Assembly: GCA_017440665.1 (NCBI GenBank)
Contig: JAFSGU010000008.1
Span: 17,987 to 81,986, forward strand
DNA from: Clostridia bacterium
GTDB taxonomy: Bacteria; Bacillota; Clostridia; Oscillospirales; CAG-272
Direction of reading: 5' to 3'
Length of the DNA: 64,000 nt
The notes beneath the pieces are model-generated. The model saw only the letters and a program-made list of their open reading frames with translations. It was not told the DNA's origin and made no database searches. The first letter of the stretch is position 1; every line of letters begins with the position of its first letter. Both the position numbers and the translations under genes were made by a program. Below, one piece after another: positions 2,896 to 11,504 of this stretch.

Positions 2896-3975
2896 TTATG
2901 CAAGGTAACCCTGTCTGTAAAGAAGCTCTGCGATAAGAACAGCACCGCCTGCCGCGCCGCGGAGAGTGTTATGAGACATACCGACGAACTTATAGTCGAA
3001 CATTGTGTCGGGTCTGAGTCTGCCCACGGATATACCCATACCGCGGTAAAGATCGCGGTCGATACCGATCTGAGGACGGTTCTCTTCCTCAAAATAGGTT
3101 ACGAACTGATCGGGAGCGGAGGGGAGGCCGAGGAGCTGAGGCGCACCGCGGTAGCTCTTCCACGCTTCGATGATAGCTTCCTTGGGAGGCTTGTTTTCAA
3201 AGTTTACGAATACAGCCGCAGTATGACCGTCGGTTACGGGAACGCGGATGCACTGTGTGGTGATAATGGGAGCTTCTGCGGGAACGATGATACCGCCGCG
3301 AACTTCACCCCAAATTTTGAGGGGCTCCTTCTCGCTCTTTTCCTCTTCACCGCCGATGTAGGGGATGATATTGTCTACCATCTCGGGCCATGACTCAAAA
3401 TTCTTACCTGCTCCGGAGATAGCCTGATATGTGGTGGCAACAACTTCCTTAATGCCGAACTTGAGAAGGGGAGTGAGGATCGGAACATAGCTCTGGATGG
3501 AGCAGTTGGGCTTGACTGCGATAAAGCCGCGCTTTGTACCGAGACGCTCTCTCTGGCTCTTGATGACCTCAAGGTGAGAGTCGTTGATCTCGGGAATTAC
3601 CATGGGAACGTCACTGGTCCAGCGGTTAGCGGAGTTGTTGGAGATTACGGGAACTTCAGCCTTGGCGTAAGCTTCCTCGAGGACGAGGATCTCGTCCTTC
3701 TTCATATCAACTGCGCAGAATATAAAGTCGCACTCAGCCTTCATCGCTTCGATGTCTGCCGCGTCCTTTACGATCATGTTTTCAGCTTCTGCGGGGATGG
3801 GACCTTTCATCTTCCATCTGCCCTCAACTGCCTCCTTGTAAGGAACGCCTGCGCTTCTCTTACTTGCGGCAACAGCTGTAAGTTTGAAATAGGGGTGGTT
3901 CTCGAGAAGAGTGATAAATCTCTGACCGACCATACCTGTGGCGCCTACGACGCCTGCTCTTGCTTTATTGTTCAT
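2896..3975 (-). CDS. asd: Aspartate-semialdehyde dehydrogenase
   Basis: ORF 2896..4023. The start at MNNKARAGVVGATGMVGQRF carries the NAD(P)-binding GxxGxxG motif. The protein also has an active-site-like VKPNCSIQ and HNTLRGAAGG near the C-terminus. Confidence 0.92.
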   Translation of the reverse strand: MNNKARAGVVGATGMVGQRFITLLENHPYFKLTAVAASKRSAGVPYKEAVEGRWKMKGPIPAEAENMIVKDAADIEAMKAECDFIFCAVDMKKDEILVLEEAYAKAEVPVISNNSANRWTSDVPMVIPEINDSHLEVIKSQRERLGTKRGFIAVKPNCSIQSYVPILTPLLKFGIKEVVATTYQAISGAGKNFESWPEMVDNIIPYIGGEEEKSEKEPLKIWGEVRGGIIVPAEAPIITTQCIRVPVTDGHTAAVFVNFENKPPKEAIIEAWKSYRGAPQLLGLPSAPDQFVTYFEEENRPQIGIDRDLYRGMGISVGRLRPDTMFDYKFVGMSHNTLRGAAGGAVLIAELLYRQGYLA

Positions 3976-4062
3976 GTATGTGTACCATACCTTTCTTCCG
4001 AGTTTGCGGGATGTGGGTATCAATAATTTGCCGTTTTATTACGGAAAAATATTAATGATGAC

Positions 4063-5278: not shown

Positions 5279-6520
5279 TTATTCCGTGTAAATGGGGAAT
5301 TTTGCGCAGATAGCCATTACCTCGGCGGAAACGCGTTCGCGGTTACCCTCGAAGTCGCGTGCGATGTCGCCGATGAAGCGTGCGATCATTCGCATCTCAT
5401 CCTTTCCGAAGCCGCGGGTGGTAACTGCGGGAGTACCTATTCTGATACCGCTGGTTACGAAGGGACTCTGGGGATCGTTGGGGATCGCGTTCTTGTTTAC
5501 TGTGATGTGTACCTCGTCAAGTCTTTTCTCCATATCCTTACCGGTGATGCCGAAGGGGCGGAGGTCAACGAGCATAAGGTGGTTGTCTGTGCCTCCGGAA
5601 ACGAGTCGGAAACCTTCCTCGATCATTGCGTCTGCAAGAACAGCCGCGTTTTCGGCGATAGCGCGCTGATACTCGCGGAACTCCTCAGTGAGAGCCTCGC
5701 CGAAGGCAACTGCCTTTGCGGCAATAACGTGCTCGAGGGGACCGCCCTGGGTTCCGGGGAATACGGCCTTGTCGATCTTCTGTGCAAGCTCAGCAGTACA
5801 GAGGATAAGACCGCCTCGGGGACCGCGCAAAGTCTTATGAGTAGTGGTTGTGACTATATGTGCGTGCGGTACGGGACTGGGATGCACTCCTGCGGCAACA
5901 AGTCCTGCGATATGCGCCATGTCGACCATAAGGTATGCGCCGACCTCGTCTGCGATCTCACGGAGGCGCGCGAAATCGATGACTCTTGAATATGCGCTTG
6001 CACCTGCTATGATCATCTTGGGGCGGCATTCAAGAGCGGTTTCGCGGATCTTACCGTAGTCAAGCATCTCTGTGTCGTCGTCAACACTGTAGGGGACGAT
6101 GTTGAAATACTTGCCGGAAATATTTACAGGAGAACCGTGTGAAAGATGACCGCCGTGAGCAAGGTTAAGACCCATGACCGTATCACCGGGATTGACGAGG
6201 GCGAAAAATACCGCAAGGTTTGCGTTAGCACCGCTGTGGGGCTGAACGTTTGCGTGCTCTGCACCGAAGAGCTTTTTTGCTCTCTCACGTGCGATATTCT
6301 CTACAACGTCCACACACTCACAACCGCCGTAGTAGCGTTTGCCGGGGAGACCCTCGGCATACTTGTTGGTGAGGGGGGTGCCTGCGGCGAGGAGGACGGC
6401 TTTGGATACGATATTTTCTGACGCGATAAGCTCAATGTTATGCTGCTGACGCTGAAATTCCGCGTCACACGCTGCAGCTACCTCAGGGTCGTAATTTTTA
6501 AGTTCTTCGAAAAAAAGCAT
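5279..6520 (-). CDS. glyA: Serine hydroxymethyltransferase
   Basis: ORF 5279..6559. The start at [14 protein letters not shown] follows [16 protein letters not shown] and the PLP-lysine region [14 protein letters not shown] are diagnostic. Confidence 0.95.
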
Positions 6521-6874: not shown

Positions 6875-6903
6875 TTGACAATCATGTTAAGTCATGATAT
6901 AAT
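6875..6903 (+). promoter_or_regulatory. Consensus extended sigma-A promoter driving the ORF-less region
   Basis: TTGACA (6875-6880), a 17-nt spacer, TG (6895-6896), then TATAAT (6898-6903). The upstream flank is A/T-rich (AAAAATATT). Confidence 0.8.
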
Positions 6904-7732
6904 AAAGACACAGAGAAGAGATGAAAACAAAAGGACCTGACAAGAGCCGGGTCGGAAATCATCAAATAAATTAAGGGAGGTGTCGGACATGATTTTCAGC
7001 AGTGTTAAGTTACGTGCCGTGTGTGAACGGGACAAGTACAGATCATCGGTCCCGACATATCCAATAAAACGTATTTAATATCGCGGCACGCAGACTAAGT
7101 TGACAAAAGGTCGGTGTGTCGCTTTTTCGTTCCCCGCAAGGCTCACAGAAGCAAGCGGAAGACCCGACAGCGCAAAGATCAAACACTTTTTGACACGGAA
7201 GCGGATCACGAAGTATTTTTTAAGTAAGACCTAAGGTTACCGAGGAGGGACCGCAGGAATTACACCTGCAAGGCAAAAGAAAAACCTGAGCGAGAAGTCA
7301 GATGCGAAGATAAAGCATATGACGAAGATAAGCAGAGGTGAATACAGACCGAGGCGGGTATCCGGTATGCAGTAAGCCGATGTGTAAGGCTTAGACGGTA
7401 TCATAAAAAATACGGGGCTCGGATAAAACTAAGGTTTGAGCTTATCGCGAAGATAAGTGTCCCGAACAAAACGGGAGAGCACAGATCAAGTACGTAGAAA
7501 ACTTCAGAAAACCTCAATACGGCCTTCGTTCCGAAATAACGAATAGAATTAATGAGATGGATTAGACGAAGATGTGATTGAATATGCGTAAAAGGGTAAT
7601 TAAAACTGAATAACAACTGAATAATAAGATGATCTTTAAAATAGATTTAAGCAGGTTTTTCGCAGTATCGTAGGAAAGGACCACCCGCATGAAAAACGTG
7701 AAAAACTTTATAAAAGCTAAAATCTAAAGAGC

Positions 7733-8114
7733 GGAGGTACACTCCAATGAACACGTTAAACTAAAACTCAGACAGTTTATAAGCTACAGAGAAAAGAAAA
7801 AGTATAGTCCGGTGAACTTACCGGCTTGAACCTAAGTCAAATAAGAATATCCGAAAACGATAAGAAACAGGTATGGACCAATGAACGGTTAAAACTAAAC
7901 TTATAAGTAAGATACCCGAACAAGTGGACAGATAGGTATACACCAATGAACAGTTAAGTTAAACGGATAAAAGTTATAAGTAAGTAATTCGGAAAAAAGG
8001 TACAGACCCATGAACTGATTAAGTAAAACCTAAATATCATCATCTAAGGACAGACGGTGGATCGATACCGTCAAGGAAAAACTCAGATAAAGGTACAGGC
8101 CAATGGAAAAGTAA
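7733..8114 (+). repeat. Degenerate tandem modules (R1-R5): AGG-hairpin-CC-AATG plus a mini-ORF. A sixth copy lies at 8409-8439.
   Basis: R1 7733 GGAGGTACACTCCAATGAACACGTTAAACTAA. R2 7869 AGGTATGGACCAATGAACGGTTAA. R3 7934 AGGTATACACCAATGAACAGTTAA. R4 7998 AGGTACAGACCCATGAACTGA. R5 8091 AGGTACAGGCCAATGGAAAAGTAA. R6 8409 AGGAGGATATCCAATGGACAATCAGTTTTGA. R2-R3-R4 are spaced 64-65 nt apart and also share TTATAAGTAAG between motifs. Confidence 0.75.
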
Positions 8115-8437
8115 AGTTCACACAAGAAAAAATAATCGGTTGAAGATCACGTAAGCGATTCTTTGGGAAAAGAAACACAAGCAAAAGTAAAAGCGGAATA
8201 ACCGAAATATATGTTAAATTAAGTAATTTTTCATGCCTCACATGATAAAGGTAAAATTATTAGCGTTCGCTTCAATGATCGTGGACCGAGATAAGAGAAA
8301 GGAACGTAAAGGACTATATAAAAATATATGTAGAGATAAACTCGTCAGATAATAACAGGCGAAATAAGTAAAGTAAGAAACACAACAGAATATAGGGTGA
8401 CGAAAGTCAGGAGGATATCCAATGGACAATCAGTTTT

Positions 8438-8472
8438 GACACCCCGGCCGTGATGAGGTCGGGGTGTTTTTA
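8438..8472 (+). terminator. Intrinsic terminator of the ORF-less transcription unit
   Basis: ACACCCCGGCC pairs with GGTCGGGGTGT in an 11-bp stem (one G-U pair) around the loop GTGATGA, followed by TTTTTAT. A-residues rather than a U-tract follow on the minus strand, so it is oriented for the plus strand. Confidence 0.85.
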
Positions 8473-8513
8473 TGCTTTCGTCCATCTTCAGCGTACTGTC
8501 TGCCGTCAATATG

Positions 8514-8553: not shown

Positions 8554-11362
8554 TTACTTTACTGTGGGAGCTACGTGCTCTTTCAGAACGACCCACGGAC
8601 GGTGAAGTACCCAATTCTCGGGATCGTATATATCGTCCTTTACGCTTGCCCAATATGATTCGTTGAAGGAGTTACCCTTGTGCGATGTGACGTCAAAGCT
8701 GCGGGAGATACAGATGAACTGATCGTGCGCTGTCTTTTCGTCGCTGTTTATGGGCTTTCCTGTAAAGGGATTTACGGGATCTTTGATAAGACCGCTCGCT
8801 GCCAGCGTGGGAACGTCTGCGTTTGTCATAAACTCATTTGACGTGACAAACTCACTGCTGCCGATCTCTTTTACCATAAGGAGGGGATAGTAAGCCTCTG
8901 TGTTTCTCAGGTCCTCGATGTGAGTCATCTCGTCCTCGTATTCGTCGAGCCAAAATCCTTCCAGATGGTTGATGTTCTGGCTTCCGTGGTCGGAAACAAG
9001 AATGATCTTGGTGTTGTCGTAGACGTTATTATCACGGAGGTAGTCAAACCAATCTGCAAGACGGAGAAGAGCTGATGTTAGCGTGGTAATGGAGCATCTG
9101 ATACTGCGTCTCAACCTTCAGCGTTACGCCGTCCACCGTGAATCTGTCAGCGTGTTCTGCGTCGTACTCCTCGTTGTCTACTACCTGAGAGGGTAAGTAG
9201 TCGGGGGTCTGCAGAAGGATGGGGTCATGGGTGGTATCGTTTGAGAGGAAGAGGAACGTGTTCTTTTTGTCGGATGATATTTTTGTCATCTGAGACATAT
9301 TGGCGAGCACGTTATAGGGATTCATGAAGATGGAGTCAAGGCCTGTCGCGTGGGAAAGATCCGTGCGCTCCTGACCTGCGTATTCTACGACTGCCGAGCT
9401 TGACTGCAGACGGTTGTAGGTTCCGTTGTCATAAACGAATCTCTGAAGAAGTGTGGGCATGGACTTCATAATGCCGAAGCAGAAGAAATTTCTGTGATTG
9501 CTGTCTATGGCTGACTGCTTCTGAACAGGATCACCGAAGACGCCCTTGGTGATGTATGCGTCAATATCGGGATACTCGTCGAATATGGAAAGATCGGGTA
9601 TCCATGAGTAGTTTGCATATGTGGGGTCGCATACCGTTACGTCAAAACCGTTTTCGGAGAACAATACCGGCATGACCTTCAGCGCCTCGTTATGCTTTGA
9701 GACAAGGGATTCTGTGTCTCTCTTGTTGATCTCAACGGGAGTGTACTCATATCCGCCCAGAAGTGCGGGGATCGCCATATTGGTCTTAGGCGCGAAGGAT
9801 ATCGTATTTTTGTAGTAGGTAAATCCTGCGAATCTTTCCGCAAGCTCAGGCTTTTCGGAGAAGATATAGGGTATATATTCACCCATTGCACGGTCAAGCA
9901 TTATGACCACCACGTTTTCACCCTCCGTGCTGAGGTCGAAGTTGGGAACTCCGTTTGACTTCATACTTTCTGCGGAGGTGAGGGTATTGACTGATGAAGT
10001 AATGGTGCTCACGTTGAGAACAGCCATGCCGAAAACTGCAACTGCCGCGGTCAAAAGCACCGTGGTGCAGACCTTCGTCCATTTCATGGAGATGAAGAGG
10101 AATACTGCGATGACTGCGATGATCACGAGAAGGTTGACAAGATGCTCCTTGCCTGAGAAGCTGAGTCCCGTTTCGTACTGAAGCTGAGCGGAAATGGTAC
10201 CGAGCTTTGTGCCGAAGAACATATAGTTTACGATGGAGACACCGCTGAGTATCCACATAAGTCTTGTGAAGAAGACCTTGCCGGCGGGATTTGCAAGCCA
10301 GTAGAACACGCCGAACCAGACGAGGAAGAAGCCCGCGCTCATGGCAGCAGTGCTTGCGATATACCACATGGGATTGTGGAAGTAGGTGACGTCGATGTAT
10401 TCAAGGGTAGATGCTGAGATATAAGCTGACGGGATGAGCACACCTACGAGGACTGTCATAAACACTCCGCCCAGGATGAACATTCCGGTGTTCGGACGGT
10501 ATTCCTTCTTCTTTGCGCACACACGTACCTTTGAACTGATAAGATTCAGTATCAGAGGAAGCATGAGAGCCGCACCCAGAAGTACGATGAAAGCCTTCTT
10601 TAAAACGGAAGCGTCAAAGAACACCGCACCGAATACAACACCCACGGCACCTACGGCAAAGGTGAGTATGCGAAGGACCTTCTGAGGATTCTTTATTTTG
10701 TAGAAAATGTTCTTTACAAGAGAGAAAACGTTATTGAGCGTCCAGTAGAATACAAGACCTGCGGGAGACGTCCAGAGGAAAACAAGGAAGAAAAGGGCGA
10801 TTCCGTAAAGCTGGAGCTTGGTCTTGAGCGGGAAGCCTTTCAGGTAGATGGCACTTGAGATAACGTTGATAAGTGTCATCAGCACAGGGAGCAGATTGAT
10901 GGCAAAGCCGCCGATGACGATAAGTCCGTCGGGCGAGCCAAGGTCTGCGATGGGACCGAATGACACACCGTTCAGTATGTCTAAGTGGGAGAGGAACTGA
11001 TATGCCGCCATAAAGAAGGGGATCTCCAACAGGAGCGACACCGAGCCGTTCAGCGATGACGTAGGCTTATAATTATTCTGCTTGTAGTACGCCTGAAGCA
11101 TCATCATTCGCTCGTCGCCGGTGAAGGTCTTTTTGATGTGGTCAACACCTGCCTTCAATCTGGCTTCGGTATCACGGGCCTCTTCCTGCATTGCATCCGC
11201 TCTTTTGTAAAGCGGAAGAACGAGGATGTTCATTGCAAGGCTCAAAAAGATTATGGCAAGTCCGGGGTTTGAGACGAATCTGTTGGCGATGCCGAAAATG
11301 ATCTCAAACACAAGCTTAAGCGGACCGATAAACAAGGTACTTAATATTGAAAGAATACTCAT
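8554..11362 (-). pseudogene. YidC/Oxa1 insertase domain fused to a polytopic membrane region and an LtaS/sulfatase-like domain, interrupted by a +1 frameshift near 9070-9076
   Basis: ORF 9044..11464 starts at MSILSILSTLF (11362, AAGGAGA RBS). Its N-terminal ~240 aa look like the YidC core (LPLYKRADAMQEE...PFFMAAYQFL...GLVFYWTLNNVFS), followed by further TM segments and VVVIMLDRAMGEY...FLFLSNDTTHDP. The same domain continues in ORF 8554..9114 (ALLRLADWFDYLRDNNVYDNTKIILVSDHG) in another frame. Joining them requires skipping 1 nt. Confidence 0.65.
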
Positions 11363-11504
11363 GCTTTTCTCCTTGGTGAAAAATATCGTAAGAGTATGCA
11401 GGTATTGCAAAAGCGTTCTTGCAACACCACTTATAATGATAACATATTTTGAAGAGAAAATCAAGGAGTTTGAGTAAAAAGAGAACTGTACGGAGTATGA
11501 TATA

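Follow-up and report, generated by a model that had tools for sequence, protein, structure and literature searches.

A tandem array of short start-stop modules in a Clostridia bacterium is a member of a predicted RNA gene family of gut Clostridia

The stretch of DNA considered here, called the window below, comprises 64,000 nucleotides (nt) of a Clostridia bacterium (GenBank assembly GCA_017440665.1, contig JAFSGU010000008.1, positions 17,987 to 81,986 of the forward strand) and carries, between positions 7733 and 8439 of its plus strand, a row of repeats in which a Shine-Dalgarno (SD) sequence and a start codon open a reading frame that is closed again after two to five codons. The question raised by this locus is what a tandem series of such minimal open reading frames (ORFs) might be for. 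Sequence comparison identifies the repeats as modules of a conserved family of predicted RNA genes found in gut Clostridia (both Lachnospirales and Oscillospirales), and points to selection on the start, the frame and the stop of the modules, which may serve to load ribosomes.

The array and its modules

The array consists of the following modules:

7733-7764, plus strand: module R1, with GGAGGT, an 8-nt spacer and the ORF 7747-7764 (ATG AAC ACG TTA AAC TAA)
7801-7829, plus strand: module R0, a degenerate seventh copy, reading AAGTATAGTCCG GTG AAC TTA CCG GCT TGA (position weight matrix score 13.8)
7869-7892, plus strand: module R2, with AGGT, a spacer and the ORF 7881-7892 (ATG AAC GGT TAA)
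7934-7957, plus strand: module R3, with AGGT, a spacer and the ORF 7946-7957 (ATG AAC AGT TAA)
7998-8018, plus strand: module R4, with AGGT, a spacer and the ORF 8010-8018 (ATG AAC TGA)
8091-8114, plus strand: module R5, with AGGT, a spacer and the ORF 8103-8114 (ATG GAA AAG TAA)
8399-8439, plus strand: terminal module R6, with a GNRA-looped mini-hairpin (GACGAAAGTC, 8399-8408), AGGAGG (8409-8414) and the ORF 8422-8439 (ATG GAC AAT CAG TTT TGA)

The ORFs of R2 to R5 have two or three codons and those of R1, R0 and R6 have five. A first-pass annotation, made from the letters of the window, had reported six copies, and direct reading of the sequence finds all six mini-ORFs where it had placed them; the last was said to end inside the 5' arm of a terminator, and its TGA (8437-8439) indeed overlaps the start of the stem at 8438. 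The recurrence itself is confirmed. Five copies are recovered by one pattern, which misses R6 on account of its different distance between SD and start, and the seventh copy R0 had been overlooked. Chance does not account for the recurrence: allowing at most one mismatch, AGGTAYNNNCCAATGRA occurs five times in the 64-kb window against 0.06 expected, all five copies lying on the plus strand within 7735-8107, and none of 100 shuffled sequences reached five. A repeat search grouped the same five copies into one 31-nt family with spacings of 134, 65, 64 and 93 nt and also recovered a common linker segment, AAA(C/G)TTATAAGTAAG. The earlier suggestion that units of about 65 nt were duplicated in tandem is borne out by this spacing and by the comparison of arrays across the family. 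With a position weight matrix that leaves out the ATG, the five copies and R0 were picked up, the rest of the window giving scattered weak matches. In the four close relatives described below R0 is a normal module, AGGTATAGACC(A/G) ATG, with an ORF of two to three codons (continuing AAC TGA/TAA in three of them and AGA AGT TAA in L005; locus numbers are ours).

A family of predicted RNA genes in gut Clostridia

The window array is one member of a large family, a fact that the first-pass annotation had missed. One genome per species, for 185,579 species, was scanned for two adjacent module copies (AGGTAYNNNCCNATGRA, N35-65, GGTAYNNNCCNATGRA), and 79 loci were found where about 0.5 would be expected by chance (an estimate for uniform base composition). 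About 74 of the 79 are from Clostridia of animal or human guts, and the carriers include Blautia wexlerae, other Blautia, Eubacterium ramulus, Ruminococcus species, Oscillospiraceae, Lachnospiraceae, Acutalibacteraceae and Flemingiibacterium. Four matches (L069, L071, L078 and L081) were rejected as unrelated coding or GC-rich repeats. Since the scan needs two adjacent canonical modules, the true distribution will be wider and less rich in ATG than the sample. The same pattern gave at least 120 matches in metagenome contigs, mostly from human-gut assemblies among the matches listed, and the one match in viral contigs was an unrelated GC-rich coding repeat. Two loci carry unexpected species labels: L053, labelled Holdemanella biformis, is 85-92% identical to Blautia loci and L012, labelled Dysosmobacter segnis, is 90-95% identical to loci of the Eubacterium ramulus type; both are probably mis-binned contigs.

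Each locus has between two and 11 modules, always on one strand and mostly spaced 50-75 nt apart. In 56 of 75 loci a near-consensus sigma-A promoter precedes the first module by 15-235 nt (20 of 75 on the opposite strand of the same segments), and no neighbouring gene is conserved family-wide among 77 loci, the neighbours being specific to the lineage (enolase and RNase R in Blautia, secA in the E. ramulus group, glyA in the clade of the window). In sequence terms, the family RNAs are free-standing genes. The predicted RNA of Blautia wexlerae, for instance, runs for about 620 nt from promoter to terminator and consists almost entirely of modules. Arrays of Lachnospiraceae have a fixed order, with one or two start-less modules of a class that has CCA or CCG at the start position (the CC class, see below), then three to seven three-codon AUG modules and finally a terminal module that starts with TTG or ATG and has an ORF of five to six codons. 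More generally, among the 54 loci in which a crude terminator finder worked, at least 31 have an SD-preceded ORF of five to ten codons that ends between -5 and +2 nt from the terminator stem; R6 is the counterpart of this terminal ORF-terminator module in the window. The terminal peptide of an Oscillospiraceae group, MLDIKSEQK, shows mostly third-position changes. Together with the synonymous changes in the R6 peptide given below, these changes directly indicate, by comparison between genomes, that codons are read in the terminal ORFs at least. An Oscillospiraceae subgroup (L020, L027, L035, L045, L047, L048, L059, L064 and L065; also L039, L040, L044 and L085) shares a downstream element, ACACGGCGGTGT(T)ACGC, and a terminal ORF (M)LD(I/F)KSEQK, the last codons of which form the terminator stem.

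A gene for a DUF1292 (YrzB-like) protein adjoins the array in seven loci of the Ruminococcus/Acutalibacteraceae type (L037, L041, L021, L026, L031, L043 and L083), all in one group. In L037 (5512-5826) and L041 it is co-transcribed upstream of the array, and its start region there resembles a module. The remaining five loci have the gene in divergent orientation. The adjacency may reflect a functional link or shared synteny only.

No match at the gathering score was obtained in Rfam 15 for the window, the region or ten family loci, the E-value mode giving chance-level hits only. A plasmid BLAST search with the Blautia RNA gave no match, and no description of such arrays was found in full-text literature searches. 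We are not aware that any family of free-standing RNAs composed of tandem minigenes has been described. The family is uncatalogued and represents a large gap in RNA catalogues; it was missed by structure-based searches because it is unstructured, as set out below.

Anatomy of the module

Modules were collected with a matrix that excluded the ATG and everything downstream of it, which gave 355 modules in 77 loci; ORF length, stop frame and codons were thus absent from both the search pattern and the matrix. The consensus of 227 strict copies is an A-rich leader followed by (A/G)(G/A)AGGTA(C/T)(A/G)G(T/A)CCA, ATG, (A/G)A(N), NNN and T(A/G)A. The SD consensus is exact and at a fixed distance from the start, extending over at least 4 nt in every module and at least 5 nt in 92% of them, and the 8-nt spacer, AC(A/G)G(T/A)CCA, is fixed in length and keeps its sequence across orders. 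With its SD of (G)GAGGU or AGGU, each module thus has the look of an ideal site for starting translation. At the start position 257 of the 355 modules have ATG, 16 have GTG or TTG, 50 have CCA or CCG and 32 something else.

Among the 257 ATG modules the ORF has two codons in 55, three in 173 and five in 15, so that 228 are closed after two or three codons; in the +2 frame closure within three triplets was found in 15 of 257. For 237 of the 257 the nearest stop-like triplet after the ATG lies in frame, at offsets of 6, 9 or 15, that is of whole codons. At codon 4 the stops are TAA (138), TGA (25) and TAG (14), and they interchange between orthologues. Codon 2 is purine-rich (AAA, AAC, AAG, GAA, AGA, GAC or GGA) and codon 3 is free. 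The short-ORF pattern is present individually in 68 of 77 loci. The CC class comprises the 50 start-less modules GGTACAGACCACC(A/G), usually the first of the Lachnospiraceae arrays (e.g. in L029, L015-L017, L023, L024 and L060); among Blautia species these show TAA/TAG swaps and insertions or deletions of whole codons.

Selection on start, frame and stop

The closest comparison involves five genomes, namely the window and four contigs from metagenome-assembled genomes (MAGs) or metagenomes that have a GlyA 95-96% identical and the same gene order. All four relatives carry the whole RNA at 78-83% DNA identity, the 5' part of about 850 nt being highly conserved; at the position next to glyA homologues of 87-89% identity the RNA is absent. 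The 1.5-kb RNA also has a distant orthologue over its entire length in L034, from an "uncultured Ruminococcus sp.", where identity in the 5' domain is 61%.

In the five genomes the module core (AGGT to ATG plus codon 2) has a pairwise identity of 89%, against 55% for the linkers and 54% for codon 3, and an in-frame stop closes 35 of 35 orthologous mini-ORFs. For R2 the third codon is GGT, TTT, AGC, AGG and GAT in the five genomes with the stops TAA, TGA, TGA, TAA and TAA, and for R3 it is AGT, AAT, AAG, AAA and AGG with the stops TAA, TAA, TAA, TGA and TAA. R4 and R5 alternate between two and three codons by gain or loss of a whole codon. The stop of R1 is fixed at codon 6 in the five genomes with variable codons 4 and 5, and the ORF has three codons in L034. 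The R6 peptide MDNQF is identical in L034, with two synonymous changes and a TGA replaced by TAA. Codon 3 thus evolves at the rate of the linkers while the stop persists, as would be the case if selection acted on the reading frame and its stop and not on the peptide, and this is how we read these alignments.

Structure of the arrays

The first-pass annotation had presented the repeats as SD-hairpin-AUG modules in which the GG of the SD pairs with the CC ahead of the start, with a weakly covarying third pair. This element did not hold up. In the 355 modules the two G-C pairs are invariant, hence uninformative, and the 5' base of the third pair is an invariant T, which stands opposite T in 218 modules, A in 127 and G in seven; the pair can form in 38% and is missing in most family members. 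Mutual information did not exceed 0.19 for any pair of columns within the module. The arrays fold no better than shuffled sequences, with z-scores of -1.07 (window positions 7725-8125), +1.53 (Blautia array) and about 0 (unit pairs from five lineages), and a structured-RNA reading of the array was rejected on these scores. The module is a linear, single-stranded motif, and the arrays are unstructured.

The likeness to CsrB/RsmZ, in which GGA sits in hairpin loops, goes the same way, as the window modules read AAAGGTA, CAGGTA or TAGGTA without GGA and have no conserved hairpin. What remains of the earlier interpretation is an SD, an AUG and ORFs of two to five codons that the comparisons show to be selected and not accidental, the hairpin element, the structure and the CsrB/RsmZ-like design being dropped. 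The three functions that it had listed (a sponge for ribosomes or an RNA-binding protein, a minigene array, and ribosome loading that protects the RNA) are still the candidates. CsrB and RsmZ do resemble the family in being free-standing RNAs with many repeated SD-like sites and high expression (here predicted from the promoters), but Csr/Rsm sites are about 10-30 nt apart, whereas the modules are unstructured, often lack GGA, lie 50-75 nt apart and carry an AUG with an in-frame stop.

Ribosome-loading minigenes as the favoured reading

We favour, at about an even chance, the reading that the modules are genuine minigene sites that load ribosomes. It is suggested by the strength and spacing of the SD, the purine-rich codon 2, the frame-specific but interchangeable stops, the indels of whole codons, the lack of structure, a spacing compatible with 70S ribosomes and the synonymous changes in the terminal peptides. 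Because some of the RNAs (e.g. that of Blautia) consist almost only of modules, the modules themselves must be what the RNA is for, which favours a sink for ribosomes or initiation, or a minigene effect on peptidyl-tRNA, over a purely protective role. Perhaps, then, the RNAs act as a ribosome sink; both this function and the occupancy by ribosomes are what we infer from the sequences. A dedicated ribosome-trapping function is put forward tentatively. In an equally tentative version of it, an SD-tethered 70S start-stop cycle on each module would buffer or sequester translation capacity, or load the pools of peptidyl-tRNA hydrolase (Pth) and tRNA, or release fMet-tripeptides. In this version the terminal ORF-terminator module would tie what happens at the 3' end of the RNA to its occupancy by ribosomes.

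Minigenes of two to three codons with a strong SD are translated and re-initiated very efficiently, as is known from the lambda bar elements and other minigene work. In the mechanism proposed here, 30S subunits would bind each module by pairing of SD and anti-SD; a 70S ribosome would form, translate two or three codons and terminate within a few nt of the SD, after which the same site could be used again. The RNA would carry a train of ribosomes, a spacing of at least 50 nt giving room for one 70S per module, and no protein would be made, the by-products being fMet-tripeptides and possibly peptidyl-tRNA. The most likely role on this mechanism would be that of a sink or buffer for ribosomes and initiation capacity.

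The bar minigenes of phage lambda and synthetic minigenes of two to three codons were reportedly characterised by Hernandez-Sanchez in 1998, Tenson in 1999 and Heurgue-Hamard in 2000. They resemble the modules in having a stop only one or two sense codons after the AUG, a strong SD that is consequently close to that stop, and a preference for an A-rich codon 2; judged by sequence alone, 228 of the 257 ATG modules have the minigene layout of an SD, a properly spaced AUG, one or two further sense codons and a stop. Lambda bar elements are single, phage-borne and defined by their toxicity in Pth-limited E. coli, whereas the arrays comprise two to 11 tandem chromosomal copies on a dedicated, promoter-driven RNA in two orders of Clostridia, with a conserved spacer and a terminal ORF-terminator module. 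Start-stop ORFs and short regulatory upstream ORFs (uORFs) are likewise minimal ORFs in which translation matters and not the peptide. They act in cis on a downstream gene, however, and the arrays end in a terminator with no consistent gene behind it; in the window the terminator is followed by a convergent gene and the downstream genes differ between lineages, by which a leader-peptide attenuator or regulatory uORF was rejected.

Several observations weigh against ribosome loading. The scan required an ATG in two adjacent modules, which biases the ATG frequency upward, and many loci are close relatives, so that the counts overstate the number of independent events. No ATG, GTG or TTG stands at the start position in 82 of the 355 modules (23%), and alternative starts are enriched only about 2.6-fold among the single-base variants of ATG. 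In 39 of the 50 CC modules a stop is kept in the same register, for which ordinary initiation gives no explanation. The conserved spacer hints at another binding partner, because initiation normally leaves the sequence of the spacer unconstrained. In a comparison made for signs that the linkers have evolved to leave the cores unpaired, the mean difference was 0.013, with 18 of 26 loci positive.

Alternative explanations

The spacer conserved across orders and the start-less modules keep alive an alternative that we consider doubtful, namely that the RNAs titrate, as a sponge or decoy, some partner other than the ribosome. This could be an RNA-binding protein or else a small RNA (sRNA) rich in C that binds the single-stranded (A/G)GGUAC(A/G)G(U/A)CCA with a downstream UAR, and its natural targets, being start regions, would explain the likeness to start sites. 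Conservation of the core, spacer included, goes well beyond what an SD and an AUG need, the start-less modules are themselves conserved with UAA or UAG at the same distance in the CC class, and a multi-site, unstructured, free-standing RNA with a strong predicted promoter has the classic layout of a sponge. Against this alternative stand the stops, which span TAA, TGA and TAG at distances that shift by whole codons (offsets 6, 9 and 15) and stay in frame in 92%, and the synonymous substitutions in the terminal peptides. Isolated copies of the core at gene starts, where natural targets would be sought, are almost nil in about 674 kb of flanking DNA (the exceptions being one DUF1292 gene and a weak match at asd), no candidate protein gene is linked to the array, and the absence of GGA from the window modules speaks against CsrA as the partner. 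Less probable still is that the modules are cis-stabilisers only, on which parked ribosomes or 30S subunits block RNase J1 and RNase Y, much as on STAB-SD or the hbs leader, and so protect an RNA that has its function elsewhere (for instance in the small gene and structured domain upstream of the window array, or in the DUF1292 gene of L037). The STAB-SD of cryIIIA is a ribosome-protected 5' stabiliser of a Firmicutes mRNA. Close to the 5' end it has, as does the hbs leader, an SD-like element to which a 30S subunit or ribosome attaches, with a possible block to RNase J1, and the modules may be likened to this element. According to PMC5737220, initiating ribosomes at a strong SD block RNase J1 in B. 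subtilis. Many loci have their first module 15-130 nt from the -10 element, the start-less CC modules at the 5' end resemble STAB-SD, and in the window and L037 the array shares its predicted transcript with a real gene; the window array itself begins about 830 nt from its promoter. STAB-SD and hbs elements are nevertheless single and located in the leader of a protein-coding mRNA, whereas the modules are arrayed, mostly have a complete mini-ORF and in many cases account for the entire RNA. Several lineages, Blautia and the E. ramulus group among them, have almost nothing but modules and a terminator, so nothing else to protect, and one 5' element would be enough against RNase J1, yet up to 11 are kept. 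The arrays may still work partly like STAB-SD stabilisers.

That the array is a repeat without function, or one assigned wrongly, is highly improbable; such a reading would make it a decaying gene, a neutral minisatellite, a type III antitoxin array or a degenerate array of clustered regularly interspaced short palindromic repeats (CRISPR). Its tandem period of 52-70 nt does resemble CRISPR repeat-spacer units, but the repeats are only 68-74% identical to each other, the segments between them are orthologously conserved and no cas-like neighbour was found. Type III antitoxins such as ToxI and CptI are also tandem direct RNA repeats, and they occur in Lachnospiraceae (PMC3401426), as does the cptIN family. 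Their repeats are of 34-45 nt, nearly identical and directly upstream of a toxin gene of the ToxN/CptN/TenpN type, whereas the family repeats have diverged outside the SD-AUG core; no toxin-type or other conserved neighbour and no cas gene was present in 77 loci, and the gene downstream of the window array is convergent. No ORF and no plasmid similarity was found either, and a core at 89% identity against 55% for the linkers, conserved across orders, indicates purifying selection. CRISPR, type III antitoxin, pseudogene and neutral minisatellite are ruled out by this conservation pattern together with the genomic context.

If ribosomes do occupy the modules, the product of the arrays would be that very occupancy, for the first time in a natural RNA family. 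They would also be a trans-acting means of setting the level of free ribosomes or of initiation capacity, so far known only from protein hibernation factors and from the "burden" of synthetic biology, and minigenes, until now a curiosity of phages and the laboratory, would become part of conserved bacterial physiology. The carriers include abundant human-gut commensals (Blautia wexlerae, Eubacterium ramulus and Ruminococcus), for some of which the loci come from named strains. If a protein or sRNA binds the core instead, the arrays would be a multi-site sponge RNA of Clostridia, of an unusual and also new design.

The transcript and its surroundings in the window

The window array is part of a predicted ORF-poor transcript of about 1.56 kb that runs from promoter to terminator and is headed by a real gene of 29 codons, a composition that had gone unnoticed in the first-pass annotation. 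Besides the modules it comprises the following features:

6875-6903, plus strand: sigma-A promoter (TTGACA, 17 nt, TG-n-TATAAT; 12/12), with a predicted start near 6910
6989-7078, plus strand: small ORF sORF1 of 29 codons, MIFSSVKLRAVCERDKYRSSVPTYPIKRI, with the SD AAGGGAGGTG at 6973-6982
7083-7130, plus strand: terminator-like hairpin GCGGCACGCAGAC...GTCGGTGTGTCGC with a U-run, 4 nt after the stop of sORF1
7136-7735, plus strand: clade-specific, conserved and partly structured middle domain with 120 predicted pairs, 25 of them with compensatory changes
8155-8170 and 8222-8262, plus strand: two blocks between R5 and R6, GCGATTCTTTGGGAAA and AGTAATTTTTCATGCCTCACATGATAAAGGTAAAATTATTA, invariant in the five-genome alignment
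8438-8478, plus strand: intrinsic terminator of the transcript, the 5' arm of which overlaps the stop codon of R6

The promoter is conserved in L001, L005, L006, L007 and L034, and in the terminator one pair is T-A in L001 and L007 where the window has A-T, a compensatory change. In the clade of the window the array starts about 830 nt downstream of the promoter. Over about 2 kb around the array there is no ORF of more than 71 codons, and the plus strand is strongly purine- and A-rich.

Between the window and L034, codons 18-29 of sORF1 show five synonymous and no non-synonymous changes, and in the close clade three of four substitutions are synonymous, a pattern that marks sORF1 as a genuine small coding gene opening the predicted transcript. 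It has no match in Pfam or NCBIfam, and by tblastn it was found only in the window clade and L034. The hairpin behind it is invariant in the close clade and in L034 has one compensatory change (A-U to G-C) and one change from G-U to A-U. Possibly it serves as an attenuator and controls whether the remainder of the RNA is reached by read-through, and the layout suggests that translation of sORF1 would control read-through into the array. The array of the window may accordingly be the 3' part of a composite transcript and be reached only when the attenuator is read through. In the middle domain a long hairpin (about 7640-7727, plus strand), nearly invariant and with one compensatory change in L034, encloses the SD and the start of a conserved 12-codon ORF, MKNVKNFIKAKI (7689-7727), the stop of which is TAA or TGA in the relatives. 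Outside the close clade only L034 has the 5' and middle domains, which are absent from all other family loci. The two invariant blocks between R5 and R6 stand amid variable surroundings, and the second overlaps a weak promoter-like match at 8228-8257.

Both flanking genes are on the minus strand, with glyA (5279-6520) on one side and, downstream of the array and convergent with it, a YidC-like/phosphodiesterase gene on the other. A look-up of the exact GlyA protein of the window gave no record. The host carries sporulation markers (SpoIVA and others) and is therefore a spore-forming Clostridia bacterium; its closest public relatives are MAGs named "Eubacteriales bacterium". In the window the YidC-like/phosphodiesterase gene (8554-11464, minus strand) is split into two overlapping ORFs of 186 and 806 amino acids and in four relatives it is a single gene of 935-936 amino acids; the split is due either to a frameshift, which would make the gene a pseudogene, or to faulty assembly of this genome. 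The start region of asd (about 3966-3999, minus strand), reading GAAAGAAAGGTATGGTACACATACATGAAC, bears a weak likeness to the module with a longer spacer and is kept in L001, L005, L006 and L007; this likeness is probably a coincidence.

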